Part shown: piece after piece, positions 25,253 to 50,109 of the stretch | Layout of the letters: each line of letters starts with the position of its first letter | Numbering within the stretch: position 1 is the first letter of the stretch | The notes under the pieces: generated by a model | The model's database searches: none | The model's input: only the letters and a program-made list of their open reading frames with translations | What the model was told of the DNA's origin: nothing | Position numbers and translations under genes: made by a program | Assembly (NCBI GenBank): GCA_963666275.2 | Contig: CAXXOA010000002.1 | Coordinates: forward strand, 2,112,001 to 2,176,000 | From: Oceanispirochaeta sp. | GTDB lineage: Bacteria; Spirochaetota; Spirochaetia; DSM-2461 | Length of the DNA stretch: 64,000 bases | Reading direction: 5' to 3'

Positions 25253-25312
25253 TAAATCTCACCCGGGACAACCTTTTTCTCAGGCTGTCCCAAAAAATCT
25301 GAAAAGGAAGAA

Positions 25313-26530: not shown

Positions 26531-26541
26531 AAGGAAATTTT

Positions 26542-29467: not shown

Positions 29468-30631
29468 ATGACTGGTCAAAGGAAAAACCCTGAAAAAGTG
29501 TCTGGAACAAATCCGCTTTACAGTGAAATATTTACCTCCGAATTCCTCCGGGGGGGGAATCATTCACAGAAATATCAACTGGTTTGCCTACTCGGTTATT
29601 CTTCTTTTCAGTCTATCCACCTGGCTTTTTCAGGGAAACAGCATTGCCGGGCCTGTAGGAGTGGCCCTAGCGATGTTTAATCTGGTATATAACTTTCTGA
29701 TCGGATATTTCATCAATGACTATAAAAGGATCCACTATATAGGTTATGTGACAATCACACTGAATATAATTTCCCTAACAGTCTATAACTGTCTGGATGC
29801 CATGAACAATTCATTATTCCTGCCGGCTACATCGGCTACACTTCTTCTGTTCCCAGTCATTATTTTTCTTGCCTCTCTGAGGATCAACCATAAACTAGTT
29901 ATTTTTTCGACAGTTCTTTCTGTTGCTTCAATGGATGGCCTTTACCTTTATGTCGCTCATTTTCATGATCTTGATATCCATACAAGTGCCCTCTCCACCG
30001 ACTGGCTCAGCCGGGGATATAGAACCATTTATCTGATTATGATCGGGTATATGATCTCCAGAATCCCGAAAACCATGTACAGGATTCTGGGAAAACAGGA
30101 AGTTCTGAGACAGGAGACTCTGGTTCATCAGACAAAAGCCGAAAAAGACCCGCTCACAACTTTACATAACAGGCATTATCTGAACTCCTACTTTGAAAAC
30201 TACCGTCAGGCCTCATGCCTGCAGAACCAGAAATTCGCTCTACTTTACATCGATATCAATGATTTCAAACAGATCAACGATACCTACGGGCATGACTATG
30301 GAGATTTTGTTTTAATCTCCCTGGGAAAGGATCTGAGATCTGCTGTAAGAGATGAGGATATTGTAGCCCGGCTGGGGGGGATGAACTTGTGATCCTTGTC
30401 AAACTCCAGCCGGACAGGAAGGGCCTTGATGAAATGACTCAGAGAGTCTCCCGGGCGGTTGCCAGCCCCCGCAGCTTTCAGGATGTGACATTTCATATCA
30501 AATGCAGCATCGGGGTCGCTGTCTATCCGGATAAAGCTTCCTCACTGGATGAGCTTCTGAAGAAAGCGGACCAGGCTATGTATTCCGTCAAAAAACAGAA
30601 AAAACACGGCGTGGCCTACTGTTCCGGGTAA
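29468..30631 (+). pseudogene. Membrane GGDEF diguanylate cyclase, frameshifted at two G homopolymers
   Basis: DPLTTLHNR, DINDFKQINDTYGH, ARLGG|DEL, SIGVA..ADQAMY; shifts at G8 29550-29557 and G7 30374-30380. Confidence 0.8.
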
Positions 30632-34135: not shown

Positions 34136-34347
34136 TGTATAGATGCACACTACGGATTTGTAGGAAAACCCTGTTTAATCCTCACTGAATTCAGGGAACC
34201 CGGTAGGATTTCTCAGAAGGGAAGAAATATCGGGGTTTGGTCATACAGAAATGTCATATCTACTGAAATGTAAAAAATGAAAGGAACCGGCCTCTTTCTC
34301 CGTATGTGTAAATGCATATTGCTGGAGAGCGGGAAGATACCTAAAGT
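34136..34347 (+). promoter_or_regulatory. Three operator-like boxes plus sigma70 promoter TTGCTG-N17-TAAAGT
   Basis: Collinear match to 45991-46203 on the minus strand. Confidence 0.75.
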
Positions 34348-34378: not shown

Positions 34379-35041
34379 ATGAAGAGTCCGCGTATTGGAA
34401 TTTTACGGGTTTTAACAACGGAAGATCAGGCTGTGATGATGGCCCATCAGAATAAGCTGCAGGATCTGTTTCCCCACTGGACTTTTACAACCAGATGCAT
34501 CCCCGATCAGTACGAGGGCATACATGACGATGAAACCCATGAAGCCGCCCTGCCCAAGATTCGGCAGATGGCCTGTGAATGGGAAGGGGACCTGGATGGT
34601 CTCATTATCAGCTGCGCCGGCGATCCCGGTGTGACAGAACTCAGAGAGGTCCTCTCCATTCCCGTCATCGGCGGGGGGATCGCAGCCTCCTCTCTCAGCC
34701 TGACCATGGGAAAAAAAGTCGGTGTCATCGGGATCGAAAAAACTGTTCCCCCCAACTATCCCCGGATCCTGGGGGAACATTTCGGTGGTTATATCCTCCC
34801 TGCGGGAATCGTCAATACCAACGATCTCGGGACCGGGGCGGGAAAAGCCGCCGTGGTACAGGCTGCAGAGGATTTGAAGGACAGAGGCTGTGATGTCATC
34901 GCCTTTGCCTGTACGGGGCTGACAACGGCAAAGGCCGCGTCTCTTCTCTATCCGGTCGGTCTTCCTGTGGTGGATGCTGTGATAGCCGAGGGGATAGCCA
35001 TGGATGTAATGCTGAAATCTTCAGGATGGTTTGAGGTTTAA
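34379..35041 (+). CDS. Asp/Glu/hydantoin racemase family protein
   Basis: IISCAGDPG and FACTG two-cysteine motifs. Confidence 0.85.
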   Translation: MKSPRIGILRVLTTEDQAVMMAHQNKLQDLFPHWTFTTRCIPDQYEGIHDDETHEAALPKIRQMACEWEGDLDGLIISCAGDPGVTELREVLSIPVIGGGIAASSLSLTMGKKVGVIGIEKTVPPNYPRILGEHFGGYILPAGIVNTNDLGTGAGKAAVVQAAEDLKDRGCDVIAFACTGLTTAKAASLLYPVGLPVVDAVIAEGIAMDVMLKSSGWFEV

Positions 35042-35042
35042 A

Positions 35043-36125
35043 ATGATGGAACTGACAAAAGAACTGGCAACGGCAGCCCTTTACGGAGGTCTCTTCCTCG
35101 GAGGCGGCGGCGGAGGTCATCTCAAGGGGGGGCTGGAAACTCTGGAAGCGGCTCTCTCTCTGGGAACAATCCATATGCTGGATCTCGATGAATTTGATTC
35201 AGACGGTCTGGTTATTACCGCTTCTGCAGTGGGATCCCCTGCTTCAAAAGAGGGCTATCTTTCCACCGATCAGGTCCTGGCGGCCTTTGAACTGATTCAG
35301 AGCCGGCTGGATGCTCCCGTTAAGGGGATTATAACCAATGAGAACGGGGGGCACTCCACTTCAAACGGCTGGATCCTTTCCGCCTCAACAGGCCTGCCCT
35401 TTATCGATGCGCCCTGCAACGGAAGAGCCCATCCGACAGGAGTCATGGGCAGCATGGGGATGGATCTTCTCCCCGACTACAGATCCCTGCAGGCTGCTGC
35501 GGGCGGAAGGGGAAGGAAAGCCCTGGAGGTCACTGCTTCAGGTGATATGAACAGCTGTGCGGGGATCATCCGCCAGGCCGCGGTCAGTGCGGGTGGGCTT
35601 GTGAGTGTTTACAGGAATCCTGTCAAAGCCTCGTACCTGTCGGACCATGCCGCTCCCGGAGGGATAGCTCAGGCTGTCCGGGTGGGAGAGCTCTTTATGA
35701 AGTCCCGGGACAAAGAGGAACTGTACAGATCCCTCACAGAGCTTCTGGATATGGAAGTACTTGTCTCCGGCAAGGTCAGTGAGTTCTCTCTTACCATTGA
35801 AGGGGGATTTGACCACGGCTATCTCTGCATCTCAGATGGGAAGGATACCTGGAAAACAACCTTCTGGAACGAGTTCATGTCTGTAGATGTCAACGGAAAA
35901 CGGATCTCAACCTTCCCCGATCTGATTGCCTGTCTGGACAGTGGGAGCGGCCGGGTCGTTACAAGTGCGGAAATGAGCCGGGACAGAAATATTGATGTTG
36001 TCCGTGTTCCCATGGAGAAACTGATCCTTGGTGCGGGAATGCGCAACCGGGGGCAGTTCGAGCTGGTTGAAACGGTACTGGGAATCTCCATGATTCCCTA
36101 TCTGGATAAAGGATTTTTACAATGA
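35043..36125 (+). CDS. DUF917 family protein
   Basis: LGGGGGG, VGSP, ENGG, DAPCNGRAHP, GGFDHG, WNEF, TFPDLI. Confidence 0.82.
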   Translation: MMELTKELATAALYGGLFLGGGGGGHLKGGLETLEAALSLGTIHMLDLDEFDSDGLVITASAVGSPASKEGYLSTDQVLAAFELIQSRLDAPVKGIITNENGGHSTSNGWILSASTGLPFIDAPCNGRAHPTGVMGSMGMDLLPDYRSLQAAAGGRGRKALEVTASGDMNSCAGIIRQAAVSAGGLVSVYRNPVKASYLSDHAAPGGIAQAVRVGELFMKSRDKEELYRSLTELLDMEVLVSGKVSEFSLTIEGGFDHGYLCISDGKDTWKTTFWNEFMSVDVNGKRISTFPDLIACLDSGSGRVVTSAEMSRDRNIDVVRVPMEKLILGAGMRNRGQFELVETVLGISMIPYLDKGFLQ

Positions 36126-36796
36126 AATTAGGTGTAATAACAGTAGGACAGTCCCCCAGAACGGACTTTACAGATGATGTGGCCGAGGCTTTCTCTCCTG
36201 ATGTGGAACTTCTGCAGAGAGGCGCTCTGGATTCTTTCACAAGGGACACTCTCCCTTCTATCGCCCCCGAGGAGGGGGATGCGGTTCTGGTTTCCAGAAT
36301 GCGGGACGGATCTCAGGCCACATTTGCCGAGAAGCATGTCCTGCCGCTGCTGCAGGAGGCTATTGATGATCTGGAAGAGAAAGGCTGCCAGGTTATCCTG
36401 CTCCTTTGCACCGGTAAATTTCCTCCTTTCAGGCATGATTCCATCCTTATAAAGCCCCAGGAGATCCTTCCCGGAGTGGTCGAGAAAATAGCCGCAGGAA
36501 AGAGACTGGGGATACTCATTCCCGAAAAAGAACAGATTCCCCAGATGCGCCAGTGGTGGAGCATCGAAGACGAACGGCTCTGCACGGCAAGCGGTTCTCC
36601 CTACGGGGAACTGAAGCATGTGGAGGCAGCCGCAGAGGAGCTGCGCCGCCAGGGGGCGGATCTGATCTATCTGGACTGCATGGGATATTCAAGGCATATG
36701 AAAGAAAGGGTTTCCGCCATTGCGGGAGTTCCCGTCATCCTGCCCAGAATGCTGATCGTCCGTATTATCAATGAGCTGCTGGAAGGGCAGGGCTGA
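36122..36796 (+). CDS. aroM: AroM family protein (racemase-like fold)
   Basis: TVGQSPRTD, LVSRMRDG, LLCTG, SPY, LDCMGY. Confidence 0.85.
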   Translation: MKLGVITVGQSPRTDFTDDVAEAFSPDVELLQRGALDSFTRDTLPSIAPEEGDAVLVSRMRDGSQATFAEKHVLPLLQEAIDDLEEKGCQVILLLCTGKFPPFRHDSILIKPQEILPGVVEKIAAGKRLGILIPEKEQIPQMRQWWSIEDERLCTASGSPYGELKHVEAAAEELRRQGADLIYLDCMGYSRHMKERVSAIAGVPVILPRMLIVRIINELLEGQG

Positions 36797-36869
36797 TTCT
36801 GATTTTTTCACATAGACCTGTTGAGAGACCCTGTTGCGGCGGGGAAGTGGGAAGGAAGGAAATGAGATT

Positions 36870-37970
36870 ATGAAAGATATACTGAGCCGTTTTATGGAAT
36901 ATGTGCAGATTGACAGTGAATCGGGCAATGAAAAAGCCATGATGGAGGTTCTCAAAGAGGAACTGACCGCCCTGGGCGCTGAGATCTATCTGGATGATGC
37001 GGGCGCAAAAGTCGGATCCAATGGGGCGAATCTCTATGCTTTTTTCAGGGGGGATCCCTCCCGGGAGCCGCTCCTTTTTTCCTGCCATATGGACACGGTC
37101 GCCCCGGGAGTGGGCATCAGGCCTGTTGTGATAGACGGTATCATCCAAAGCGAAGGGGATACCATTCTGGGAGGAGACGACAAGTCGGGAATCAGCGCTC
37201 TTATGGACGCCCTGACAAGAGTCCGGGCCCGGGAGGAAGGGCATGCCCCCGTTGAGATCATTTTCACCATCTGCGAAGAGGGAGGGCTGAAAGGTTCGGC
37301 CAATCTGGATTACTCCCGCCTTTCTGCAAAGGAAGGGTATGTCCTGGACAGCAGCGGCCCTGTGGGGAAGATCATAGTCCAGGCCCCCACCCAGTTCAAA
37401 ATTACCGCTGACATCAGGGGCAAAGCCGCGCATGCGGGGCTGTCCCCCGAAAAAGGCGTCAGTGCCATCCAGGTCGGCGCTGCTGCTCTGGCAGGGATAA
37501 ATCTTCTCAGGATCGACGAGGAGACCACAGCGAATATCGGGACTTTCCAGTCTGCCGGGCCGACCAATATCGTCAGGGATTCTGCTCAGGTGATTGCTGA
37601 GGTGCGGAGTCTCTCCATAGAAAAAGCCGAAGCCCAGATTGCCCATATGAAGGACTGTTTCACAGAAGAAGCCGAAAAGGCCGGGGCGGAAGTCAGTATT
37701 GAAGTGTCCTGCCTGTATGAGTCCTACAATTTCTCTTCTCGGGACCAGGTGGTCGCCTTTGCGCAGGAGTGTTTTGAGGCGGCGGGAATAGAGTCTTTCA
37801 CCGCTTCCACAGGCGGGGGAAGCGATGCCAACAACTACAATGCCAGGGGCATTCATGTCCTGAATCTGGGATGCGGGGTTACAGGCCCTCATTCCTTTGA
37901 GGAGAGTCTTCCCGCTGAAGAACTGGAACGGCTCTCCCGGCTGGTCTACACCATGATTGTATCAAGATAG
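36870..37970 (+). CDS. M20 peptidase T-like metallohydrolase
   Basis: CHMDTV, GGDDKSG, CEEGGL, HAG, GGGSDAN, PHSFEE. Confidence 0.9.
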   Translation: MKDILSRFMEYVQIDSESGNEKAMMEVLKEELTALGAEIYLDDAGAKVGSNGANLYAFFRGDPSREPLLFSCHMDTVAPGVGIRPVVIDGIIQSEGDTILGGDDKSGISALMDALTRVRAREEGHAPVEIIFTICEEGGLKGSANLDYSRLSAKEGYVLDSSGPVGKIIVQAPTQFKITADIRGKAAHAGLSPEKGVSAIQVGAAALAGINLLRIDEETTANIGTFQSAGPTNIVRDSAQVIAEVRSLSIEKAEAQIAHMKDCFTEEAEKAGAEVSIEVSCLYESYNFSSRDQVVAFAQECFEAAGIESFTASTGGGSDANNYNARGIHVLNLGCGVTGPHSFEESLPAEELERLSRLVYTMIVSR

Positions 37971-38037
37971 CGATGGAAAACCCTGTACCTGCGTACAGAT
38001 GAAAATATTAGATTTTAATGATAGTAAGGATAAAAAT

Positions 38038-38985
38038 ATGCTTATCAGACAAGTAATGGAACTTTTCGATCTTTTAGACAAACCCTCTGCCAATGGTCTT
38101 GAAGTGGCCCGGATGTTTCAGGCCAGGGGAATTCAGGATGTGGTTGTGACCACTCTGGAGGGAGACAAGGGATCCACCGACTGTATCCGGGTGGTGATTC
38201 CCGGGAAAAACGGCAAATCTGCGGGAGGCTCTGTTCCCACTCTGGGAATCATCGGCCGCCTGGGAGGTCTGGGTGCCAGACCGGAAATGACTGGATTCGT
38301 CTCAGACGGGGACGGAGCCCTGGCGGCCCTTGCGGCGGCACTCAAACTGGGTGAAATGCATGTAAACGGAGACGTCCTGGAAGGGGACGTGATCATCACG
38401 ACTCATATCTGCCCCGATGCTCCTACCAGAGAGCACTACCCCGTGCCTTTCATGGACTCTCCCATCAGTATGGAACAGATGAACACCACAGAAATTGTCC
38501 CGGAAATGGACTGCATTGTATCGATTGATACAACCAAGGGAAATGAAGTGATCAATGTCAACGGAATCGCTATTTCTCCCACTGTGAAAGAGGGGTATAT
38601 CCTTCCTGTCAGTTACGACATGCTTCAGATTATGAAAAGGGTTACAGGAACAAAACCGGCTGTATTTGCCCTGTCCACCCAGGACATTACACCCTATGAG
38701 AATAATCTGTCCCATATCAACAGCATTCTCCAGCCGGCCATAGCCACGGATGCTCCGGTCGTGGGAGTTGCCGTTACCACCGAGGCTCCCGTTGCGGGCT
38801 GTGCCACTGGAGCTTCCAGCTTTATCAGTATCGAACAGGCCTCCCGTTTTGCTGTGGAGGTTGCCAAAGACCTCAGCAAGGATATCTGTTCTTTCTATGA
38901 CAAGGAGAACTTTAAAAAACTCTCGGCCCTCTACGGCCATATGACTCACCTTCAGACCCCCGGAAAGGATCTGGCAGGGGTATAA
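38038..38985 (+). CDS. DUF1177 family protein
   Basis: GIIGRLGGLGARP, VSDGDG, THICPDAPT, SIDTTKGN, QDITPY, HINSILQP. Confidence 0.82.
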   Translation: MLIRQVMELFDLLDKPSANGLEVARMFQARGIQDVVVTTLEGDKGSTDCIRVVIPGKNGKSAGGSVPTLGIIGRLGGLGARPEMTGFVSDGDGALAALAAALKLGEMHVNGDVLEGDVIITTHICPDAPTREHYPVPFMDSPISMEQMNTTEIVPEMDCIVSIDTTKGNEVINVNGIAISPTVKEGYILPVSYDMLQIMKRVTGTKPAVFALSTQDITPYENNLSHINSILQPAIATDAPVVGVAVTTEAPVAGCATGASSFISIEQASRFAVEVAKDLSKDICSFYDKENFKKLSALYGHMTHLQTPGKDLAGV

Positions 38986-38987
38986 TC

Positions 38988-39020
38988 AAAGGGGCTACCG
39001 GAACAATCCGGGAGCCTTTT
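38988..39020. terminator. Probable terminator between convergent DUF1177 and PucR genes
   Basis: GGCT(A)CCGG...CCGG(G)AGCC imperfect stem, A and T tails. Confidence 0.55.
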
Positions 39021-40526
39021 TCAGTTCCGGTTCACCGACATGATCTGATCCAGTTTCAGAGCCATCAGCATCAGCAGGCGCCCCTCCTGGGACTTCACGT
39101 CGATTCCCGTAATGTTTTTGATCTTTTCAAGGCGCTGGTACATTGTATTTCTGTGGAGTCCCAGAGACTTTGAGGCTTCGGAGATATGAAAATCCCCCTG
39201 GGAGAGAATTCTGAGGGTTTCCAGAAGATTCTCCCTATAGGTTTCATCATTTTTCCGGAGCGTCTCAATGGAGTTCTTGTAGAGCCTTTTGAGTATGGGA
39301 TTCTCCCTCTGGCTCGACAGGAAGTGGTAGAGCAGCAGATCGTTGTATGTGAGGAACTTTTTCAGATGAGGCGAGAGGGACTGCCCCATTCTGAGGGTGA
39401 ACATGGCATCCTGATAGGCCTGCCTCATATCGAAGAGATCCTGATAGGCCCTGCTGTTGCCGACCTGACAGCGCAGATCGGGGTAGAGGTTCTCTATGCG
39501 CTTCATAAGCTGATTGACCCTCCCCGCGGCGGATTCATCACTCTCTTCATCTTTTTCGTGGATCGAAATGATCTGATCCTGATCGCTTAAGAATATATTT
39601 TTGGGAAAGTCGGTTTCGCACATCCTCACAATCCGATCCATGTTGTGTTTTTTCTGATCAAAATTGTACAAATGCATAATCCAGATATACCGGAGCCCCA
39701 CAAAATTGAGATTGTAGAGCTGGCTTTCCTTTATGACAGCTTCCTTGCTTGTATTGAGCCCGAAGATAAGGCTGAAAAGGAACTCGTTTTTTCTTTTTTT
39801 ATACTGGGCCGGAAAGTTCATCTCTCCCACACGGGCCATGAGAATGTAGGGACGGAGCAGTTTTCTCTGGATCTGATCGGGAGCCATGATGGAGGATCGT
39901 CCCTGGAGAAAGAAGAAGGCCGAAATGCTCCCGTAGGCCATCAGAGTATTGCCGTGCCACTTCTCATTTTCATGGGTAAAAAGGACTTCCTCCTGGCCGA
40001 TGGAGGAGTAGGATCGCTCATTTTCCAGGTGGTTGGCCCAGTCCTGAAAAGGGATCGACGCCGGGTTCTCTGTCCGGTTGTCCAGAACCAGTCTTTTATC
40101 AGGCCCCAGAATAACAATGGGGGCTCCTGTCACATAGCTGATAAGGCTGCACATATTGGTGAGCGAAAAGTGCAGACTCCCCGCCAGGCTGTTGAGGGTT
40201 TCCTTCAGCTCCTCAAAGAGAGAGTAGGGATCGTACTGATCGATCAGCTTATCCAGTGAGTCCACGGCTCCTGAGGGAAAAGCGGCCTTCTGCAGAGACT
40301 CCTGCCAGGGAAGGGGCACCGGGCCGGTGGGATTTATGATAAACAGACCCTGAACGTTTTTCACTTCCGCCAGTTCAATGAGGGAGCCGATCTCTTCTTC
40401 CTTCAGGAAATTGGTAAAAATACAGAGAACCTTGGACGATTCGATTCTGTATGTGTCAGCTACTGTGAAGACCAGGAGCATATCTTTTTTGGATACTGTG
40501 GGCAAGTTTTCTGATAACCAGGGCAT
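39021..40526 (-). CDS. PucR/CdaR family transcriptional regulator
   Basis: C-terminal HTH ISEASKSLGLHRNTMYQRLEKI. Confidence 0.85.
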   Translation of the reverse strand: MPWLSENLPTVSKKDMLLVFTVADTYRIESSKVLCIFTNFLKEEEIGSLIELAEVKNVQGLFIINPTGPVPLPWQESLQKAAFPSGAVDSLDKLIDQYDPYSLFEELKETLNSLAGSLHFSLTNMCSLISYVTGAPIVILGPDKRLVLDNRTENPASIPFQDWANHLENERSYSSIGQEEVLFTHENEKWHGNTLMAYGSISAFFFLQGRSSIMAPDQIQRKLLRPYILMARVGEMNFPAQYKKRKNEFLFSLIFGLNTSKEAVIKESQLYNLNFVGLRYIWIMHLYNFDQKKHNMDRIVRMCETDFPKNIFLSDQDQIISIHEKDEESDESAAGRVNQLMKRIENLYPDLRCQVGNSRAYQDLFDMRQAYQDAMFTLRMGQSLSPHLKKFLTYNDLLLYHFLSSQRENPILKRLYKNSIETLRKNDETYRENLLETLRILSQGDFHISEASKSLGLHRNTMYQRLEKIKNITGIDVKSQEGRLLMLMALKLDQIMSVNRN

Positions 40527-40616
40527 GAGCCATTATAGCATGAAAGAAAAACATCATAGAAGTCCGGAGGCTTTCGCCAGACCGGGAGGAGAAGAGATCA
40601 CTTTGAAGGGAAAAGA

Positions 40617-40664
40617 ACAGCCTCTCTGATGCCGTCGGGGGCCCGCGGTATTCAGAGAGGCTGT
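40617..40664 (-). terminator. Hairpin at the end of the peptide ABC operon
   Basis: ACAGCCTCTCTGA / TCAGAGAGGCTGT 13-bp stem. Confidence 0.7.
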
Positions 40665-40674
40665 AATAAAAACC

Positions 40675-41514
40675 TTATTCCTTATCCAACTGGATTCGGT
40701 CCAGAAAAGCCTGTTCTTCCGGGTTAACAACCGCGATGGCTTTTAATAGGCGTTTTGTATACTCCTTCCGGGGAGAATCAAAGATTTTATCCACTGTTCC
40801 CTGTTCCACAAGGTTACCCTGCTGAAGAATAATCACATCGTCCGCAAAGTTTTTCACCAGGGCCAGGTCATGGGTTATGAAAAAGTAGGTTATCTGATAC
40901 TGATCCTTGATAGACTGGAGCAGGTCGATAACTTTACTCTGTACAGACACATCCAGGGCTGATGTGGGTTCATCCAGAACAATAACAGGAGATTTCAGAG
41001 CGATGGCCCTGGCAATCCCTATCCTCTGCTTCTGTCCGCCGCTGAGCATATGGGGATAGCGCTCAAGGAAGGACTGGGGAAGATGAACTACATCCATCAG
41101 TTCCCTGACCTGTTTCAGACGGGCCGCTTTATCTCCTGTCTGGTGGACGATCATGGGTTCCTCTATAATCTCTTTGAGAGTTTTCCGTGGATTCAGAGAG
41201 GAAGTGGGGTCCTGATGGACTATCTGAACTTTCTGCCGGAACTTTTTCAGATCCTGTTTGCTCTGAATCGCGGAAATGTCCATGCCGTCCAACGTTATCA
41301 CACCCTTTGTGGGGACTTCAAATTTCATCAGCATTTTGGCCATGGTTGTTTTTCCGGAACCTGATTCGCCGATGACCGCAAAGGTTTTGCCTCTCTCAAT
41401 TTTGAAAGACACATCATCTACGGCTTTGACAAGATTTTTCCCCTGACCCAGAAGGGACTTCTCTCCTCCGAAATATTTACAGACATTTTTAAATTCAACT
41501 ATTGTATCGGACAT
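40675..41514 (-). CDS. Dipeptide/oligopeptide ABC ATPase (OppF/DppF-like)
   Basis: GESGSGKT, LSGGQKQR, DEPTSALD. Confidence 0.92.
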   Translation of the reverse strand: MSDTIVEFKNVCKYFGGEKSLLGQGKNLVKAVDDVSFKIERGKTFAVIGESGSGKTTMAKMLMKFEVPTKGVITLDGMDISAIQSKQDLKKFRQKVQIVHQDPTSSLNPRKTLKEIIEEPMIVHQTGDKAARLKQVRELMDVVHLPQSFLERYPHMLSGGQKQRIGIARAIALKSPVIVLDEPTSALDVSVQSKVIDLLQSIKDQYQITYFFITHDLALVKNFADDVIILQQGNLVEQGTVDKIFDSPRKEYTKRLLKAIAVVNPEEQAFLDRIQLDKE

Positions 41515-41529
41515 TCGGTAACTCCTGGA

Positions 41530-42366
41530 CTATATGATCTTGGGCAGCACATCAAGCAGGTGCCTGGTGTAGTCGGTCTGCGGGTTGAGGAATACATCCT
41601 GACTGAGGCCTTCTTCCACAACTTCTCCCAGTTTCATAACGTAGGTCCGTGTTCCCAGCTGCTTGGCAACGCCCAGGTTATGGGTTATGAAAAACATGGC
41701 GATGTTCTCTTCTTCCACAAGGCGTTTCAGTTCCATATTGATACTGGCCTGTACTGTGACATCCAGAGAGGTTCCCGGTTCGTCCGCCAGCAGCAGCCTG
41801 GGAGTTTTGATCAGAGCCATGGCAATGATCACCCTCTGTTTCATACCGCCGGAAAGTTCAAAAGGATACATTTTGAGTATGTTTTCGGGATGGGGAAGAC
41901 TCATTTTTTCAAGGAGATGGATCGACCGGTCCCTGGCCTCTTTCTTCAGGATTTTCGCTGATCTTCTGTAGCCTCGGAAGGTGGAATTTTTCCCCTGATA
42001 CAGATAGATGTTCTCCATCTGTTTTCCGATGGTGAAAACAGGATTGAGGGCAATCATGGGATCCTGGAATACCATGGAAATTTCACTTCCCCTGATACGC
42101 TGGATCTCATTCTCATTCATGGCGAGGATATTCTCCCCTCTGAACAGAATCTCTCCCTCCGTATAGACAGCGGGAGGTGTGGGGATCAGCCGGAGGATCG
42201 ACCGGATTGAAACGGACTTTCCGCTGCCTGATTCTCCCACTATGGTGACAATTTCACCTTCATTGATATGAATGTTCACATCCTTGATGGTGGGAGTTAT
42301 CTTCTTCTCGTCATTCAGGAATCCGATACTCATATGATTTATTTCAAGTAAATGTTTTTTTTCCAT
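41530..42366 (-). CDS. Dipeptide/oligopeptide ABC ATPase (OppD/DppD-like)
   Basis: GESGSGKS, FQDPM, LSGGMKQR. Confidence 0.92.
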   Translation of the reverse strand: MEKKHLLEINHMSIGFLNDEKKITPTIKDVNIHINEGEIVTIVGESGSGKSVSIRSILRLIPTPPAVYTEGEILFRGENILAMNENEIQRIRGSEISMVFQDPMIALNPVFTIGKQMENIYLYQGKNSTFRGYRRSAKILKKEARDRSIHLLEKMSLPHPENILKMYPFELSGGMKQRVIIAMALIKTPRLLLADEPGTSLDVTVQASINMELKRLVEEENIAMFFITHNLGVAKQLGTRTYVMKLGEVVEEGLSQDVFLNPQTDYTRHLLDVLPKII

Positions 42367-42378
42367 ACTGATCTCCTG

Positions 42379-43266
42379 TTAAACCTGTACATCCAGAGCA
42401 TCGCGGAGACCGTCACCGAGGAAACTGAATCCCAGAACTGTAATCATAATGGCCAGACCGGGAAATACCGAAGACCACCATACCGTGGGCATGAAGGTTC
42501 TGCCCGATGCGATCATGGTTCCCCATTCGGGGGTGGGGGGAAGAGCTCCCAGTCCCAGGAATCCCAGACTGGCCCCGGTCAGGATGACAAATCCCACGTC
42601 TGTTGAAATCTTCACTATAATGGTGGGAAGACAGTTGGGAAGGATTTCATGAAACATGATTCTCCACTGGCTGGCACCGATTCCTTCTGAGGAGATAATG
42701 AACTGTTCGTTCTTGATTTTCAGAGTTTCCGCCTGTACCAGACGGGTAAACCAGGGCCACCATCCAAAGGATATGGCAATCATGGAGTTCATCAGATTCG
42801 GTTCCAGTATGGCCGCCACAGCCATGGCCAGTATGATCGAGGGAACCGCCAGAAAAATATCGGTGATTCTCATAATGATTTTGTTGGTCCATCCGCCCCG
42901 GTAGCCCGCAAACAGTCCCAGGGGAACACCGATCAAAACGGCAATAGTCAGTACAACCACGCCCATCATGAGGGAATACCGGGACCCGTATATGACGCGG
43001 CTGAGAATATCTCTTCCGATTTCATCCGTGCCGAACAGAAACTCCCTGCTGGGGGGCTCATTGACCCGGCTGAAATGGATATCTCCTTTGGAATCATCAG
43101 GATAGGGTGCCAGGAGCGGGGCGAAAACCGCGGAAAACAGGATGGCAATGACTATGACAAAGCCGACAATGGTCAGCTTATTATGGAAAAGTCTTTTGAA
43201 CATCTTCCTGCGGCTGGAATATTTTTCTTCATGTTGTGCGTTCATGGTCTTTTCCTTATTTTCCAA
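42379..43266 (-). CDS. Peptide ABC permease (OppC/DppC-like)
   Basis: FGTDEIGRD, PPTPEWG, LGDGLRDALD. Confidence 0.92.
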   Translation of the reverse strand: MENKEKTMNAQHEEKYSSRRKMFKRLFHNKLTIVGFVIVIAILFSAVFAPLLAPYPDDSKGDIHFSRVNEPPSREFLFGTDEIGRDILSRVIYGSRYSLMMGVVVLTIAVLIGVPLGLFAGYRGGWTNKIIMRITDIFLAVPSIILAMAVAAILEPNLMNSMIAISFGWWPWFTRLVQAETLKIKNEQFIISSEGIGASQWRIMFHEILPNCLPTIIVKISTDVGFVILTGASLGFLGLGALPPTPEWGTMIASGRTFMPTVWWSSVFPGLAIMITVLGFSFLGDGLRDALDVQV

Positions 43267-44257
43267 GCCGGATACGGGGATCCAGGATGCTGTAGATCAG
43301 ATCCACCACCAGATTGATAATGGCAAATATAATACCGATTACCAGAGTCACTCCGATAATGGCGTTGTAGTCTTTATACATCAGACCGGCAATGCTGTAG
43401 GAAGCCATGCCGGGCCATCCGAAAACGGTTTCTACAAGGAAGGCGTTCCCGATGAGAGAGCCGAACTGCATGCCTATGATGGAGAGAATGGTTATGAAAG
43501 CATTTTTAAGCATGTACTGATTGATGATCAGGTTCTTCGGAAGGCCGTAGGACCTGGCGGCCACAATATACTCTTTATTGAGCTGTTCCATCATATTGGT
43601 TCTTGTAAGCCTCATGATCTGAGCCGCTGAAGCGATGGCCAGAGAGACTGCCGGAATGATGATATGTTTAAGGCTGTCAAAAAAAGCGGGAAAATTCAGA
43701 GTCAGAAGACTGTCCAGCAGCCAGAGACCCGTGATATGGGAAGGAACAATATTCCCGCGGCCTATAACAGGCATAACGCCCAGAATGTAGCTGAAAACAA
43801 ACTGGAGCAGGATCGCCAGCCAGAAACGGGGGATGGCAATCCCTGAGAGTGAGACTATTCGAATCAAATGGTCTGCAAATTTGTTGTTCTTCACTGCGGC
43901 AAGAACACCCAGGGGAACACCCAGCAGGATGGCAATCACCATTCCAACCAGACAGAGCTCAAAGGTTGCGGCAAAACTTTCTCGGATATCCTGGTAGACA
44001 TTATGCTGCGTCCGCAGTGAGTATCCCCAGTCTCCTTTGAAAATACCGCCTATATACCTCAGGTACTGCATGTATACTGGCTGGTCCAATCCCATCTTTT
44101 CCGTCAATTGAGCAATCTGCTCGGGTGTGGCATCCATTCCGGCTGCCAGCTTGACCGAATCTCCCGGGATAATGCGTGTTAGTGCAAAGATAAGCAAAGA
44201 CAACCCGATCAAAGTGGGTATCATTTCCAAAATCCTGTGTAATAACTCTTTCCTCAT
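43256..44257 (-). CDS. Peptide ABC permease (OppB/DppB-like)
   Basis: GLDQP, ARSYGL, VETVFGWPG, LDPRIR. Confidence 0.92.
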   Translation of the reverse strand: MRKELLHRILEMIPTLIGLSLLIFALTRIIPGDSVKLAAGMDATPEQIAQLTEKMGLDQPVYMQYLRYIGGIFKGDWGYSLRTQHNVYQDIRESFAATFELCLVGMVIAILLGVPLGVLAAVKNNKFADHLIRIVSLSGIAIPRFWLAILLQFVFSYILGVMPVIGRGNIVPSHITGLWLLDSLLTLNFPAFFDSLKHIIIPAVSLAIASAAQIMRLTRTNMMEQLNKEYIVAARSYGLPKNLIINQYMLKNAFITILSIIGMQFGSLIGNAFLVETVFGWPGMASYSIAGLMYKDYNAIIGVTLVIGIIFAIINLVVDLIYSILDPRIRLGK

Positions 44258-44282
44258 CGATCATCCTTCTGTTAAAAAAACA

Positions 44283-44319
44283 GGACTGCCGCTGAACCGT
44301 TTCCGGAGGGCGGCAGTCC
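44283..44319 (-). terminator. Intra-operon hairpin downstream of the SBP gene
   Basis: GGACTGCCGC / GCGGCAGTCC stem followed by a T-tract on the minus strand. Confidence 0.65.
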
Positions 44320-44329
44320 GTAAAAACCA

Positions 44330-45955
44330 TTATTTAACTGTTAAACTGTAAAAATTGATATCATATCCCATGAGGCCTACGTAGGTGTAACCCTCAACAT
44401 TCTTTCTCATGGCCACCCTGTGAGTGGGGTTGGCTACAAAAACGGCAGGAACCAGTTCGGCTGCCATAACCTGAGACTCTTCGTAAAGAGCTTTCTGCTC
44501 GGCCGGATCAGTGGCTTTTCTCGCTTCTACAAGAACCTCGTCTATGGCGGAGTTGGCTGCCCAGTGCATGGACCGGTAGCTTCCGGCAGTCGATGAGTGG
44601 AGGATACCATAGGTATGGCTGTCCACATGGGGGTACTTGAGGGAGTCGGAAATAACGGTCAGGTTGGCAGTTGTCTCGATTGAAGAGGCGGACTGGGTTA
44701 CCTGAGCCCATGTGACAGGCTTGGGAACAACTTTGATTCCGATAGCCTGCAGGTTGGCGGCGATGAGCTGGCTGAACTGACGCTGCTCAACAGTGTCGGC
44801 CAGGTACATAAAGGTTACTGAGATATCCTGACCGGCATACTTTGACTGGGCCAGATACTCTTTTGCCTTTGCCACGTCCTGAGTGACAGGGGTCACCGCT
44901 GAAGCGTGTCCGGGAACAACAGTGGGAACAAAACCGGCGGCAGGATTGGCGTGTCCCAGGATATCATTCAGGGCGGAAGAGTAATCGAAAGCAGACGCAA
45001 TGGCCCGTCTTACATTGATATCATCAGTAGGTGCCAGTTTGGTGTTCATGGGAAAGTACTGAAGCTTGGCGCTGGGAGCAGCTGCCACTTTGATGTTTTC
45101 ATTCTTCGCCATATCGGTAAAGGCGGAAACCGCCAGCCACTGATGGACCATATCGGCCTGACCGGAAACAAGCAGTGTTTTGACTGTTGCTTCTTCCAGG
45201 ATGGTCTGCATTCTTGCTTTTCTGATCTGACCTTCAGACCATCCTTTCCAGTAGCCTTCGTAGGCTGTGAAATCCAGATAGGACTGTCTGTTCCAGTCTG
45301 CCAGAACATAGGGACCGGAACCGGCGCTGTTTTCAGCAATATAGGCCTGTCCGTAATCGCCTTCTTCGCCGAACTCTCCCTCCTCTTTATTCTCTCTCAG
45401 AAGTTTGCTGTCCACAATGTAGAGCTGGGTCAGAGAGGAGATGAAAGGGGCATAGGGGGATTCCAGAGTGAAAACGACTGTATTGGCATCGGGTGTGCTT
45501 ACATCACTGAGAATACTGCTCCAGAGCCAGGCGTTTCCCTGGTTGATGGCGATCATTCTTTCCATAGAGTAGACAACATCAGCAGCGCTGAGGGCATTTC
45601 CGCTCTGGAAAAGCACATCGTCGCGGATGGTCATTGTGTATTCTGTTCCCGCATCATTGACGGTATATCCCGTGGCGATATGGGGAGCAGGATCCATGGA
45701 ATTGTTGGCTACATCCGGATAGAAAAGGGGATCATAAAGATTCACAGCTGTGATAATCTCTGTTTCATCCTTAACTTTGGCCGGATCAATTGTGTTCACA
45801 AGCTGCTGTGAAATATAAAGGAAAGTGTCATCAGAACCCTGAGCTCCCGAAGAAGCTGCTGCCTGATTTTCTGTCTGCCCGGCGGCAAACATGGGGAATG
45901 CAATCATGGAAATCAGAAAAGACGCCATGATAGTTCTTTTAATTATGTGTTTCAT
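44330..45955 (-). CDS. Family 5 (peptide/nickel) ABC substrate-binding protein
   Basis: Signal peptide ..FAAGQ; IDPA, GSGPY, VRRAIA. Confidence 0.9.
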   Translation of the reverse strand: MKHIIKRTIMASFLISMIAFPMFAAGQTENQAAASSGAQGSDDTFLYISQQLVNTIDPAKVKDETEIITAVNLYDPLFYPDVANNSMDPAPHIATGYTVNDAGTEYTMTIRDDVLFQSGNALSAADVVYSMERMIAINQGNAWLWSSILSDVSTPDANTVVFTLESPYAPFISSLTQLYIVDSKLLRENKEEGEFGEEGDYGQAYIAENSAGSGPYVLADWNRQSYLDFTAYEGYWKGWSEGQIRKARMQTILEEATVKTLLVSGQADMVHQWLAVSAFTDMAKNENIKVAAAPSAKLQYFPMNTKLAPTDDINVRRAIASAFDYSSALNDILGHANPAAGFVPTVVPGHASAVTPVTQDVAKAKEYLAQSKYAGQDISVTFMYLADTVEQRQFSQLIAANLQAIGIKVVPKPVTWAQVTQSASSIETTANLTVISDSLKYPHVDSHTYGILHSSTAGSYRSMHWAANSAIDEVLVEARKATDPAEQKALYEESQVMAAELVPAVFVANPTHRVAMRKNVEGYTYVGLMGYDINFYSLTVK

Positions 45956-45990
45956 CCAAGTACCTCCAATACTGTACGGGGTTTGTGCTA

Positions 45991-46203
45991 ACTTTATGTA
46001 TGATCAGAGAAATCAGCAATGTGCATATATACATCCCCATAGATGAATGAGACTCTGCTCTATTTATACCTTTATGTAGATACCACATTTTTGTATGTCC
46101 CTTTTATGAGATTCCTCCTGTTTTCGATATTTTTCCCGGTTCGTGAGAATTAAAGAAGGGCTCGGGGATGTTTTCCTACCTGAATGTAGTGTGCATCTAT
46201 ACA
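45991..46203 (-). promoter_or_regulatory. Three operator-like boxes plus sigma70 promoter TTGCTG-N17-TAAAGT
   Basis: Collinear match to 34136-34347. Confidence 0.75.
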
Positions 46204-46441
46204 TATTTTAAAAATCCATACCTCTGTTTTTTATTTTATAGTTTAGTAGAATAGGAATCAGAAAGAAAATAAATCGCCCGAACAGTTGAAAACAGCATTG
46301 GGAAAAAAGAATAAATCATTGGATTATAGAGTATTAGTTCCTGTAAGTTTACAAAACAGTATCCCTTTCCTCCGTCTGATCTTAAGAGGGGAACAGGAAT
46401 GGAACCGACAATAATCTTTTGAAGATTTGAAAGGAATCGAT

Positions 46442-46972
46442 ATGGAATTTTCAGACGTTATCAGTAAAAGGCACAGTATAAGGAGTTTCAAAGAGACCCC
46501 GGTTTCCCGGGAAATTTTAAACTCTCTCCTGGAAGCCGGAATTCAGGCCCCTACAGCCAGTAACCTGCAGGCCTGGCGTTTTGTGGTGGTCCATGATCCC
46601 GGAGTGGTCCGGAAAATCAATATGTTCAGTCCCGGAATGAGCGGCGGTCCCGCGGCGGTGATAGCCATCTGTTCTGACTACGGATATGCCGAGGCAAAAA
46701 AATCGGGTAAACACTACAAAGATTACGGCTGTATCATGGATGCTTCCATGGCTGCCCAGAATATAATGCTCGCGGCGGTTGATGCAGGCCTGGGAACCTG
46801 CGCCATAAAATCCTATACCGAATCGGCAGTGCGGAAAATCCTCAAGCTCCCCGAAGAGATCCATCTTGAAATTCTCATAGCTGTGGGATATCCCGCCGGA
46901 GAAGGGCGGAATGTGCCCCGGAAAGGTTTGAACGAAATTGTCAGCTACAACAGCTGGGGGAGTGAAGAATGA
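46442..46972 (+). CDS. Nitroreductase family flavoprotein
   Basis: KRHSIRSF, APTASNLQAW, MAAQNIML, GLGTC. Confidence 0.9.
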   Translation: MEFSDVISKRHSIRSFKETPVSREILNSLLEAGIQAPTASNLQAWRFVVVHDPGVVRKINMFSPGMSGGPAAVIAICSDYGYAEAKKSGKHYKDYGCIMDASMAAQNIMLAAVDAGLGTCAIKSYTESAVRKILKLPEEIHLEILIAVGYPAGEGRNVPRKGLNEIVSYNSWGSEE

Positions 46973-47247
46973 AAAATATCAATGAAGAACTTTATGCCCT
47001 GCTGGCCTACCTTGTCAGCAGCGCCGCCAGGCTGGGGGAGGAACCGGCATCCTACGGTCCCATACGGCTCATTGAAGGAGCGAAAAGACTCTCTGCCGTA
47101 CTGGCCCTGACGGATGAAGAAAAATCTTCTGAGCTTAAGGAGCTGGCGCATCTTATAGAAGAGGGCAGACAGAAGAGCATGAGCGACGAAGCCGCTTTTC
47201 AGGATATGCTGGATCAGACTGTGGAGAGATTGGTGGATATTGTCTGA
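46969..47247 (+). CDS. Small conserved protein (DUF6092-like)
   Basis: YLVSSAARL.EEP..YGP.RL pattern; ATGA overlap with the nitroreductase. Confidence 0.65.
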   Translation: MKNINEELYALLAYLVSSAARLGEEPASYGPIRLIEGAKRLSAVLALTDEEKSSELKELAHLIEEGRQKSMSDEAAFQDMLDQTVERLVDIV

Positions 47248-48703: not shown

Positions 48704-48891
48704 TGGCAGCAGGGATGTCATAATCCCTGTAAATTTGTCCGGTTAAAAATTTTTTCATTCCAAAGAAATTGTATTTGACTGTTTATTACTCCTTAAGTAG
48801 TGATATACTTTCAAAGCCGGGAGAGAAGTTCCTTTTTTGCCGGAATTCACTCTAAAACAGGGAAACTTTGAAAGGGAGTAATCGTAAGAGT

Positions 48892-50109
48892 ATGTTTGAA
48901 CGGAGCATTGTATCAAAAGGCCATCTGATCGACTCGGGGACCATGTCTAAAATCCTCACCCTTATTATTGACGAAAATGCGGATTATAAAATTGTCAGCT
49001 TTCAGATAGGAAAAAAGCAGGATGAGATCTCTCATCTGGAACTGCGTCTGATCTGTGATTCAGAGGAACAGCTGAATGATGTCACAGAAAAGCTTGTCAT
49101 TCTGGGAGCCTGGGAGAAAGGCGCTACCGAACCGGTTCTGAAGGCCAGTGAAAAGGACGGTTCGGTTCCGGAAGATTTCTACTCCACCTCGAATCACAGG
49201 ACCGAAGTCTTTTATGACGGGGCCTGGCGGAAAGTGGATAAACAGAGAATGGACGCCATGATCCGGAAGACACCCGAAGGCTTTGAATGTATCAAGCTCC
49301 GGGATGTGAAAAAAGGGGATTTGATCCTCTGCGGCAGCGAATCGGTCAGGCTGTTTCCCCCTGATGTGGAAAAACCTTCAGAGGGTTTTGGCTTTATGAC
49401 AAACGAAGTTTCCTCCGAAAGGAGCGACAGCATTGCGGTTGCCAAAGTGGCACAGACATTGCAGGATATGAAGGAACAGGGAAAAAAAGCCGTCGTTGTG
49501 GCAGGGCCTGTGGTTGTTCATACAGGCGGCGCCGGGGCTCTGGCGGCCCTCTTCCGGGAAGGCTATTTTCAGGGGCTCCTGGGGGGAAATGCCATCGCCG
49601 TACACGATCTGGAATCCTGCTTTTACGGGACGTCCCTGGGAGTGGATATGACCACGGGAAAACCCACTCACGGCGGCCATTACCACCATATGAAAGCTAT
49701 TAATAAAATCAAAACCTACGGTTCCATCAAAGGGGCCATTGAGGCGGGGGAACTGACCGGGGGACTGATGTACGAACTGGAAACCGCGGGGATTCCCTAC
49801 TGTCTGGCCGGGTCCATCCGGGACGACGGCCCTCTGCCTGAAACCGAGATGGATATGATCCGGGCCCAGGGACAGTATACGGAAATAATCAAAGGGACCG
49901 ATCTGCTTCTGATGCTTTCCACTATGCTCCACTCCATCGGAGCGGGCAATATGACGCCCTCCTGGGTTAAAACCATCTGCGTGGATATCAATCCTGCTGT
50001 GGTCACCAAACTTTCCGACAGGGGAACAGGACAGGCTGTGGGAATTGTCAGCGATGTGGGTCTGTTTCTGCGGGCTCTGGCAACAGAACTGGGGCTGATA
50101 TTCCAGTAA
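48892..50109 (+). CDS. LOR/SDH (TIGR00300) family protein; probable ArgZ/AgrE-type ornithine cyclodeaminase
   Basis: GHLIDSG, FYSTSNH, GPVVVHTGG, GNAIAVHD, AGSIRDDGPLP, CVDINP..TKLSDRG. Confidence 0.85.
   Translation: MFERSIVSKGHLIDSGTMSKILTLIIDENADYKIVSFQIGKKQDEISHLELRLICDSEEQLNDVTEKLVILGAWEKGATEPVLKASEKDGSVPEDFYSTSNHRTEVFYDGAWRKVDKQRMDAMIRKTPEGFECIKLRDVKKGDLILCGSESVRLFPPDVEKPSEGFGFMTNEVSSERSDSIAVAKVAQTLQDMKEQGKKAVVVAGPVVVHTGGAGALAALFREGYFQGLLGGNAIAVHDLESCFYGTSLGVDMTTGKPTHGGHYHHMKAINKIKTYGSIKGAIEAGELTGGLMYELETAGIPYCLAGSIRDDGPLPETEMDMIRAQGQYTEIIKGTDLLLMLSTMLHSIGAGNMTPSWVKTICVDINPAVVTKLSDRGTGQAVGIVSDVGLFLRALATELGLIFQ

Follow-up and report, generated by a model that had tools for sequence, protein, structure and literature searches.

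A conserved gene module around DUF1177 and AroM in Oceanispirochaeta sp., with a possible role in the salvage of ring-closed peptide derivatives

What compound would a bacterium import and dismantle with two racemase-fold proteins, a DUF917 protein, an M20 peptidase and a DUF1177 protein, all encoded beside a peptide importer and a regulator? The question is raised by a locus of 13 linked genes in about 13 kb of Oceanispirochaeta sp. (assembly GCA_963666275.2, contig CAXXOA010000002.1; a 5.27-Mb genome, 97% complete), which was analysed within a 64,000-nucleotide stretch, here called the window, whose positions are used throughout. The first-pass annotation of the window had proposed a system for the import and breakdown of a modified peptide or cyclic amide, and this proposal was partly supported: the genes co-occur elsewhere and the two operons have promoter boxes in common. 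The locus is a genuine module, conserved, apparently co-regulated, probably catabolic and so far uncharacterised; it is common in bacteria and not unique to this genome, and is present here in an unusually full form together with an AlbAB-like pair. We tentatively propose that it serves the PucR-activated salvage of small ring-closed, partly racemised peptide derivatives, most likely 2,5-diketopiperazines (cyclic dipeptides) or hydantoin-like rings that derive from peptides; we hold this to be a genuine possibility, somewhat short of probable, the catabolic direction, the substrate class, the part played by each enzyme and the sequence in which they act being what we infer.

Gene order and promoter elements of the locus

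A rightward run of five genes faces a convergent gene for a PucR-family regulator and a leftward ATP-binding cassette (ABC) operon, from which a pair of oxidase genes diverges (Table 1). Successive genes of the run are separated by one nucleotide, a four-nucleotide overlap, 73 nucleotides and 67 nucleotides, and the first two of these values indicate that the racemase, DUF917 and AroM genes are tightly coupled, as had been described earlier. The run had also been said to converge on PucR and on a complete family-5 ABC operon, and a binding protein, two permeases and two ATPases were indeed found on the minus strand at 40675-45955. All of the gene positions given by the first-pass annotation were borne out by the gene calls in the window and by Pfam, and every gene that it named was present, but an AlbA/AlbB-like pair at 46442-47247, inside its range, had gone unnamed; these two genes overlap by four nucleotides and are transcribed away from the ABC operon. 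Starts taken from the longest open reading frame were too early for several genes, for which 35043, 36870, 38038 and 46442 are better; the starts at 34379, 35043, 36122, 36870 and 38038 were chosen by ribosome-site context and orthologue lengths. A congener (G002) has all 13 genes, arranged alike and 74-94% identical but flanked by other genes, which marks the racemase gene and the AlbB-like gene as the two ends of the unit.

The shared promoter architecture claimed for the two operons was also confirmed. Four elements are common to the promoters of the racemase and the binding protein, at the near-equal offsets of -243/-248, -219/-224, -137/-142 and -74/-78, and are accompanied by a 9-mer at -37/-41. 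The operator-like 14-mer has six copies genome-wide, five of which are in the locus, and the middle-box pattern has two copies in the 5.27-Mb genome, one in each promoter. Although five matches to the 14-mer pattern in the window compare with 0.84 expected, this comparison is circular, as the pattern was built from the same sites. As the box patterns all come from these very sites, their conservation in the congener provides the independent check, and there all four 14-mers are retained and three of the four promoter elements, the distal and middle boxes among them, are visibly conserved, the spacer DNA having diverged. The pattern was not found in the loci of two other genomes, G019 and G060, and a sigma-70 promoter scan gave 16 sites against 12.9 expected and nothing useful. 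The PucR protein carries a GGDEF-like domain and a C-terminal HTH_30 domain, as in PucR/CdaR activators. Judged from these elements the two operons appear to be co-regulated, with PucR as the protein that presumably binds the boxes. Further copies of the 14-mer lie inside the PucR gene (39665-39678) and elsewhere in the genome (G000:C2:1072721).

Table 1. Genes and promoter elements of the locus, in window positions.
Feature	Position	Strand	Basis or remark
Distal operator-like box, TGTRYA-N2-TGCAYA plus conserved extension	34136-34160	+	~243 nt upstream of racemase start
Middle shared promoter box	34242-34263	+	137 nt upstream of racemase start
Proximal operator-like box	34305-34318	+	74 nt upstream of racemase start
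Racemase, Asp/Glu/hydantoin racemase fold, two-Cys	34379-35041	+	PF01177, E 3e-21
DUF917 / S-Me-THD-like hydrolase, GRAHP type	35043-36125	+	PF06032 + PF20906
AroM, second two-Cys racemase-fold protein	36122-36796	+	PF07302, E 8e-80
PepT-like M20 peptidase	36870-37970	+	TIGR01883, 397 bits vs cut-off 274
DUF1177	38038-38985	+	PF06675, E 4e-129
PucR/CdaR-family transcription activator	39021-40526	-	PF13556 + PF17853
ABC importer ATPases	40675-41514, 41530-42366	-	family-5
ABC importer permeases	42379-43266, 43256-44257	-	family-5
Family-5 substrate-binding protein	44330-45955	-	PF00496 (SBP_bac_5)
ABC-operon promoter region	46020-46203	-	between ABC operon and divergent oxidase pair
ABC promoter boxes	proximal 46020-46033, middle 46076-46097, distal 46190-46203	-	
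AlbA-like (CDOA) flavoprotein subunit	46442-46972	+	PF00881
AlbB-like (CDOB, DUF6092) subunit	46969-47247	+	PF19585, 87 bits vs cut-off 28.7

Outside the locus, the window encodes a nickel-pincer-dependent ornithine cyclodeaminase (48868-50109; TIGR00300 above cut-off) 1.6 kb beyond the unit, which is not adjacent to it in the congener. A separate cluster at 16081-29288 includes two 2-hydroxyacyl-CoA dehydratase-type subunits, two family III CoA-transferases, a TRAP transporter, a LysR regulator, a CapA-like protein and an acyl-CoA ligase, and a membrane-bound GGDEF protein at 29523-30392, whose domain ends at profile position 81 of 161, looks truncated or frameshifted.

Recurrence of the module in other genomes

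The neighbourhood analysis suggested by the first-pass annotation was carried out with kin included in all counts, the sampled genomes thus not being independent, and the genes were found to co-occur again in the congener, in Bacillota and in metagenome loci. DUF1177 itself was present in 4/61 related genomes and in 3/301 genomes of the phylum, the window genome counted, as well as in two archaeal control genomes. In G019, AroM, DUF1177 and PucR occur with an M20 of another type and a peptide ABC system that differs from that of the window, and in G060 the set comprises a peptide ABC system, OPT, racemase, DUF917, DUF1177, AroM and M29. Among the 80 DUF1177 loci of named genomes (80 kept of 139, and rich in Achromobacter and Lysinibacillus), AroM was present in 57. 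Thirty-nine DUF1177 loci were then hand-picked to cut this bias; local profiles were seeded from them, so that the seeds match by construction, and the 39 carried AroM in 21 cases, a peptidase or amidohydrolase in 28, a PepE-type protein in 10, NCS1 in eight, DUF917 and TctC in seven each and the oxidase pair in three.

A sample of 401 evenly drawn genomes of Bacillota (the phylum of G061, Bacillota by tree labels) held DUF1177 in 52, PF19585 in 11 and both in three. Of the 54 DUF1177 loci in these genomes, 51 were counted over a range of ~7 kb, the other three being L003, L182 and L185. The 51 loci contained a racemase in 26 cases, AroM, a peptide importer and a peptidase in 24 each, PucR in 22 and DUF917 of the window type in 17; a nitrilase-like gene, counted with a local profile made from one sequence, was present in six, the PepT-like M20 in one and the oxidase in none. 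L182 and L185, which stand outside the 51 and were reached through CDOB, have DUF1177 together with the oxidase pair. The commonest layout in the 51 loci was PucR, racemase, OPT, DUF917, DUF1177, AroM and M29.

A similar association was seen from the side of DUF917. When 61 metagenome loci, many of them on short contigs, were anchored on DUF917 and those scoring at least 400 bits were taken as the window type, the 23 loci of this type carried DUF1177 in 17, AroM in 15, racemase and peptide importer in 12 each, the oxidase pair in three and the PepT-like M20 in none, while DUF1177 was present in only two of the 38 lower-scoring loci. Twelve loci anchored on CDOB had DUF917 in eight (window type in one), racemase in five and DUF1177 in two. 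Across all of these loci the importers are interchangeable (OPT, family-5 ABC, NCS1, TctC and LIV-type ABC), and so are the peptidases (M29, several M20 types, PepV and PepE). By these counts, DUF1177 and AroM form a real module together with the racemase, DUF917, the importer and PucR; it recurs across phyla, and the PepT-like M20 and the oxidase of the window are accessory parts of it. That the five enzymes of the rightward run form one fixed set is contradicted by the PepT-like M20, which lies beside DUF1177 in 1/51 loci, M29, other M20 types or a PepE-type protein being found instead.

Several further arrangements were observed. A 280-amino-acid protein with no Pfam family lies between DUF1177 and AroM in 9/51 loci (for example L089:12956-13795) and is fused to AroM in L003 (L003:10935-11780); it is absent from the window, and an atlas search with the copy from L089 returned unnamed clusters only. 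In Bacillota a paralogous second module surrounds AlbAB-like pairs (L174, L175, L177, L179, L180, L181, L183 and L184), consisting of PucR, M29-like genes, another DUF917 type, NCS1 or a peptide ABC system and a distant racemase, mostly with no DUF1177. In LIV-type (branched-chain amino acid/amide) ABC operons of L237 (6140-8576), L238 (6306-8731), L232 and L234, a DUF1177 gene separates the two ATPase genes and neither AroM nor DUF917 is present, and in L020 an iso-aspartyl dipeptidase gene (8602-9732; TIGR01975 above cut-off) is divergent from DUF1177-AroM-M29-M20.

Predicted activities of the encoded proteins

Two proteins of the locus had been said to carry paired racemase-type cysteines, and the pairs were located at C79/C178 in the racemase and C96/C186 in AroM. 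Both cysteines of the racemase align with those of its closest solved relative, PDB 2EQ5, a 'hypothetical hydantoin racemase' (E 1e-47), and its match to the allantoin racemase 5LFD was far weaker (E 7e-5). A single-sequence search of the PDB with AroM found nothing, and AroM falls below the PF01177 cut-off; an AroM profile gave a weak alignment to 2EQ5 (E 0.007) with both cysteines in register, and the two residues are invariant in 40/40 aligned AroM sequences. The catalytic residues of both putative racemases thus appear to be intact, as do those of the M20 peptidase, which is above the TIGR01883 cut-off, matches PDB 3GB0 at E 1e-90 and retains the metal-ligand set in its HMD/GDDK/CEEG/LDSS/PHSFE motifs, but lies far below the cut-offs for allantoate amidohydrolase and N-carbamyl-glutamate hydrolase.

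The transporter has the family-5 (Dpp/Opp-type) architecture of an SBP_bac_5 protein, two permeases and two ATPases, and, as it has a binding protein, it imports. This binding protein fell below every NCBIfam cut-off, those of the Dpp, Opp, Gsi, Nik and Ddp equivalogs included (best score 113 bits against 600), and its best PDB match was at E 2e-28. Its closest matches outside the congener, among the loci collected, were 64% (L017) and 45% (L185) identical, and both of these are DUF1177 loci.

The pair at 46442-47247 is assigned by its residues and best matches to a cyclodipeptide-oxidase-like (AlbA/AlbB-like) enzyme. For the AlbA-like protein the best PDB matches were AlbA 8UC3 (E 5e-32) and 9EXV (E 2e-29), followed by a nitroreductase (E 4e-21), and for the AlbB-like protein they were 9EXV_C (E 5e-7) and 8UC3_D (E 6e-5). 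Residues R24, R28, S54, N55, C135, S139 and R175 of AlbA, and E33, P34, Y37 and R41 of AlbB, have identical counterparts in the window proteins, so that the catalytic residues appear to be intact; the arginines R24, R28 and R175 of AlbA bind flavin mononucleotide (FMN), and AlbB Tyr37 and AlbA Ser54 are needed for AlbAB activity (PMC11055893, available text). The position of AlbA C115, which holds FMN covalently, is an Asp in the window protein, and the same paper, so far as its available text goes, describes oxidases from clusters with no cyclodipeptide synthase (CDPS) as lacking the FMN-linking cysteine (PMC11055893). No cyclodipeptide synthase (PF16715) was found in the window genome, 97% complete, and thus any ring substrate would come from outside the cell.

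DUF917 had been linked by the first-pass annotation to thiohydantoin desulfurases, and the link was sustained at the level of the family but not below it. In thiohydantoin desulfurases the C2 substituent is displaced by water to give a hydantoin. The window protein scored 254 bits on both desulfurase models, NF058529 and NF058532, and is thus below the curated cut-offs of 440 and 450, while the positive controls L134 and L140 scored 590-600 bits and hydantoinase-linked DUF917s 67-127 bits. In a quick, midpoint-rooted tree of 72 rows, which leaves out duplicates and pieces shorter than 270 amino acids and carries a long-branch warning, a desulfurase clade of 25 rows (with L134 and L140; support 99) falls within or beside the group holding the window DUF917, and this group is apart from the hydantoinase-linked DUF917s. 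After two long-branch rows had been dropped, D123, R129, H131, D258, N277, E278 and D294 were common to the window group and the desulfurase clade, the former having E101 in place of Q and C126-N127 in place of G-D. A urocanase-family gene adjoins 3/3 of the desulfurase-clade loci tested, and no such gene (PF01175) was found in the 97%-complete window genome. A model of the protein (mean predicted local distance difference test, pLDDT, 94.8) had PDB 2O3I as its sole fold match (Z 32.6, root-mean-square deviation 2.9, 333 residues aligned); nothing besides this structural-genomics entry scored above Z 4.5, and a single-sequence search of the PDB found nothing. By sequence, DUF917 is thus a relative and not a member of the thiohydantoin desulfurases, and the score below cut-off, the shared core residues and the absence of the urocanase partner together suggest that its chemistry is probably akin to theirs, with attack of water at a ring carbon, on a different substrate.

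DUF1177, whose residues are numbered from the codon at 38032, is predicted to have a zinc-exopeptidase (M28/M17/M20) fold. Its model, from an alignment of 52 rows (pLDDT 88.6), matched M28/M17 aminopeptidases in Foldseek at E 8e-8, and in a fold comparison M28, M20, M42 and M17 were tied at Z 16-17, with deviations of 3.5-3.7, 238-245 residues aligned and 8-16% identity. No significant profile-profile alignment was obtained to M20, M28-like or M17 sets (probability at most 1%); the M17 alignment, usable as a lead only, placed R76, R83 and D92 opposite two lysines and an aspartate of M17. As far as can be read from sequence alone, Arg76 takes the position at which M28/M20 have their first metal-binding His, and the Glu-Glu motif is missing, so that the protein seems to lack the usual set of five ligands. 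A fold search of DUF1177, which had been recommended earlier, gave the fold of the zinc exopeptidases, with a ligand set that could not be recognised by sequence. An atlas search that excluded the protein's own family gave no usable match, and a complex prediction of DUF1177, with zinc, and AroM scored 0.00 against a mark of 0.32, which speaks neither for nor against binding.

Other residues are strongly kept. In 151 distinct DUF1177 sequences of at least 270 amino acids, R83, S91, D92, D94, D166, N171, D218, Y222, H228, N230, S231, Q234 and E276 are invariant (151/151), and H125 is 98% conserved. A search among longer proteins gave six DUF1177 matches, among them P0242, in which DUF1177 is joined to AroM, and P0246 and P0247, in which it is joined to PucR. 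P0242 is a natural fusion of 561 amino acids present on three contigs. P0246 and P0247 are proteins of 733 amino acids in which a PucR regulator carries a degenerate C-terminal DUF1177 domain; R83, H125, D166 and N171 are lost in them and D92, D94, H228, N230, S231 and Q234 are retained. The loss, in the fused copies, of residues invariant in the free protein fits a catalytic role for the latter. Free DUF1177 would thus be an enzyme and the regulator-fused copy a dead, ligand-sensing domain, an enzyme fold possibly having been reused as a sensor in P0246 and P0247.

Possible substrates and comparison with known systems

Cyclic dipeptides and hydantoin-like rings resist ordinary peptidases. In the salvage of ring-closed peptide derivatives that we tentatively favour, the compound would enter through the ABC system and activate PucR; the racemase and AroM would invert alpha-carbons, so that D-containing forms could join the route; DUF1177, as the one constant enzyme, would hydrolyse the unusual ring or amide bond, and DUF917 would hydrolyse a subset of substrates at a ring carbon. 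The linear L-peptide would be finished to amino acids by the replaceable peptidase of the locus, here the PepT-like M20, and the AlbAB-like flavoenzyme would add an accessory redox step at the C-alpha/C-beta bond. Interchangeable importers and peptidases are what would be expected if DUF1177 turns an unusual peptide into an ordinary linear one, and the swapping of importers, which serve peptides, cyclic amides, carboxylates or amino acids, and of dipeptidases, together with two racemases and an AlbAB-like enzyme, points to ring-closed dipeptide derivatives. A narrower version, in which DUF1177 is a cyclic-dipeptide (diketopiperazine) hydrolase with a new active site (R83, D92, D94, H125, D166, H228, N230, S231 and Q234) on a zinc-exopeptidase scaffold, we regard as doubtful. 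Measurements of cyclic-dipeptide breakdown by bacteria go back decades; it is reported to proceed by a ring hydrolase followed by a dipeptidase, the hydrolase having been unidentified as of 2013, according to the available text of PMC3852281.

Several results weigh against salvage of this kind. The usual metal ligands are apparently not kept in DUF1177, so that hydrolase activity is not assured, and the closest named relatives of the window DUF917 act on thiohydantoin and not on a diketopiperazine. About a third of the 51 DUF1177 loci lack any tested partner family within 7 kb, four partner-less loci sitting inside LIV-type ABC operons. The oxidase is loosely linked, being present in 0/51 DUF1177 loci (plus the two reached through CDOB) and in 3/23 loci of the window DUF917 type; DUF1177 occurs in 3/11 CDOB genomes against 52/401 overall, and the DUF917 and racemase of CDOB loci are mostly of other subfamilies, with window-type DUF917 in 1/12.

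The DUF917 results bear most directly on a rather unlikely alternative, in which the compound degraded would be a 2-substituted imidazol(id)inone borne by a peptide or amino acid, either a thiohydantoin or an arginine-glycation hydroimidazolone. Thiohydantoins can arise from isothiocyanate or thiocyanate adducts of peptides, and hydroimidazolones from arginine glycation. DUF917 would then produce a hydantoin, the racemases would equilibrate it, and DUF1177 with a carbamoylase or peptidase would release the amino acid. This would account for a DUF917 score on both desulfurase models well above that of the hydantoinase-linked proteins (254 against 67-127 bits), for a desulfurase clade within or beside the window group with seven residues in common, and for the nitrilase-like gene in 6/51 loci; however, three likely active-site positions differ (E101 for Q and C126-N127 for G-D), two thirds of DUF1177 loci have no DUF917, the locus has no hydantoinase, and no recurrent sulfur-handling gene was found among the neighbours scanned. 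The sulfur compound that the first-pass annotation had held possible is not borne out by a DUF917 score of 254 against 440/450 bits or by a genome in which no urocanase-family gene was found. Salvage of damaged aspartate, whether as succinimide, iso-aspartyl or D-aspartyl dipeptides, we consider distinctly unlikely; AroM and the racemase would epimerise the succinimide or D-Asp, DUF1177 would open or cleave it and an Asp-specific dipeptidase would finish it, a scheme that overlaps the salvage of cyclic dipeptides if the ring is cyclo(Asp-X). PepE prefers Asp-X, and a PepE-type (S51) protein lies beside DUF1177 in 10/39 of the hand-dereplicated loci, 3/3 of those tested passing the NCBIfam PepE cut-off; an iso-aspartyl dipeptidase in L020 is above its cut-off and TctC carboxylate receptors occur in 7/39 loci. 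Neither PepE nor IadA was found, however, in the window locus or in the 51 sampled Bacillota loci, and DUF917 and the oxidase would be left unexplained.

It is improbable that there is no single pathway at all, but a generic peptide importer and peptidase placed with unrelated small-molecule enzymes under the control of a single regulator, with DUF1177 as a binding or scaffold protein. The M20 type and oxidase of the window are seldom found with DUF1177, an Arg apparently replaces the first metal-binding His of M28/M20, and the degenerate copies in P0246 and P0247 indicate that the fold can serve with an incomplete conserved site; against this, racemase, DUF917, DUF1177, AroM, importer and PucR recur jointly across phyla, promoter boxes are shared, and ten residues are kept in 151/151 free DUF1177 proteins, the fused copies having lost R83, H125, D166 and N171. 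Catabolism of purines, allantoin or simple hydantoins, or breakdown of ergothioneine, is very improbable, in spite of the PucR-family regulator, the hydantoin-racemase-like genes and the name of the DUF917 family, since the importer is a family-5 peptide system, the PepT-like M20 is far below the allantoate amidohydrolase cut-offs and the racemase matches allantoin racemase only remotely (E 7e-5), while for ergothioneine the urocanase-family gene that adjoins 3/3 tested desulfurase-clade loci was not found in the genome. Purine/allantoin or hydantoin catabolism has nevertheless been suggested in print for CDPS-less oxidase clusters, with biosynthesis left open (PMC11055893, available text). 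The characterised AlbAB enzymes are tailoring enzymes, and most AlbAB-like enzymes are without a known substrate, as that paper states in its available text (PMC11055893), but that the cluster makes or tailors a modified peptide is scarcely credible here: no cyclodipeptide synthase was found in the genome, the genes of the locus include no synthetase, precursor peptide or exporter, and the binding protein of the transporter marks it as an importer.

If the salvage of cyclic and D-containing dipeptides were correct, with the racemase and AroM as ring epimerases and a catabolic AlbAB-like filament enzyme, the locus would constitute a complete inducible pathway for these compounds, and a thiohydantoin or damaged-aspartate peptide as substrate would make it a new salvage route all the same. 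One 13-kb unit brings together an importer, an oxidase, two racemases, DUF917, DUF1177 and a regulator for which operator-like boxes have been mapped, so that a single ligand screen on the binding protein or on PucR could assign several orphan families together. DUF1177 is present in 52/401 Bacillota genomes and in two archaeal controls, yet no paper on its function was found in the literature searched. No characterisation of DUF1177, AroM or the window type of DUF917 was found in that literature, which omits most subscription journals, in agreement with the earlier statement that AroM and DUF1177 are without an assigned reaction. In the available text of the sources searched, the only match for DUF1177 concerns fungal DUF1996 proteins, DUF917 is otherwise named in gene lists only, and nothing on these families appears in PMC13405746, PMC12516527 or 10.64898/2026.04.22.720169.

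Several of the proteins can be compared with known counterparts. DUF1177 resembles the M28/M17/M20 zinc exopeptidases (PDB 1RTQ, 1GYT and 5GNE) in the fold of its model but is 8-16% identical to them, with a ligand set unrecognisable by sequence and other residues invariant. The window DUF917 is of the same family as the thiohydantoin and S-methyl thiohydantoin desulfurases of ergothioneine breakdown (NF058529 and NF058532), its nearest named function, with the GRAHP motif and acidic residues in common, but differs in its score (254 against 440/450 bits), in E101/C126/N127 for Q/G/D and in lacking a urocanase-family partner. The Pyrococcus horikoshii protein 2EQ5, to which the 34379 racemase is closest and with which both of its cysteines align, bears a hypothetical name, and no paper giving its substrate was found in the literature searched. 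AlbAB (PDB 8UC3) and the 9EXV enzyme are the closest solved relatives of both oxidase subunits, with overlapping genes and identical key residues, whereas the window protein has an Asp for C115, there is no AlbC-like synthase, and the genes diverge from a catabolic importer.

As a whole, the locus may be set beside two known arrangements. Hydantoin-utilisation (hyu) operons combine a permease, hydantoin racemase, hydantoinase and carbamoylase; the locus resembles them in combining an importer, a racemase, hydrolases and an activator and in its logic of racemising, opening and releasing, but it has neither a hydantoinase nor an NCS1 permease, and has instead two racemases, a peptide ABC system and an M20 of the PepT-like and not the carbamoylase kind. 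No hydantoinase or N-carbamoylase was found among the locus genes, the single PF01968 match lying elsewhere, on contig C1. The CDPS-less oxidase clusters in print are closer: they hold hydantoin racemases, DUF917, AroM, peptide ABC transporters and peptidases, with no function given in the available text (Andreas & Giessen, 10.1101/2023.09.25.559410, published as Nat Commun 2024, PMC11055893). The description of the system as new was thus right as to a module that is uncharacterised, but similar gene sets are on record around such oxidases, in the available text of that paper, and the locus has an oxidase pair of this kind. The two have in common CDOA and CDOB with no synthase, a PF01177 racemase, DUF917, AroM, a peptide ABC system, a peptidase and the lack of the FMN-linking cysteine; they differ, so far as the available text goes, in that loci of the window type have DUF1177 and AroM, and not the oxidase, as their constant core, 'DUF1177' being absent from the main text and supplements searched of that paper (PMC11055893), and in that most sampled CDOB loci carry other subfamilies of DUF917 and racemase. 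In its predicted workings the locus resembles a hydantoin-utilisation operon without being one, and clusters of its type have already been noted in print.

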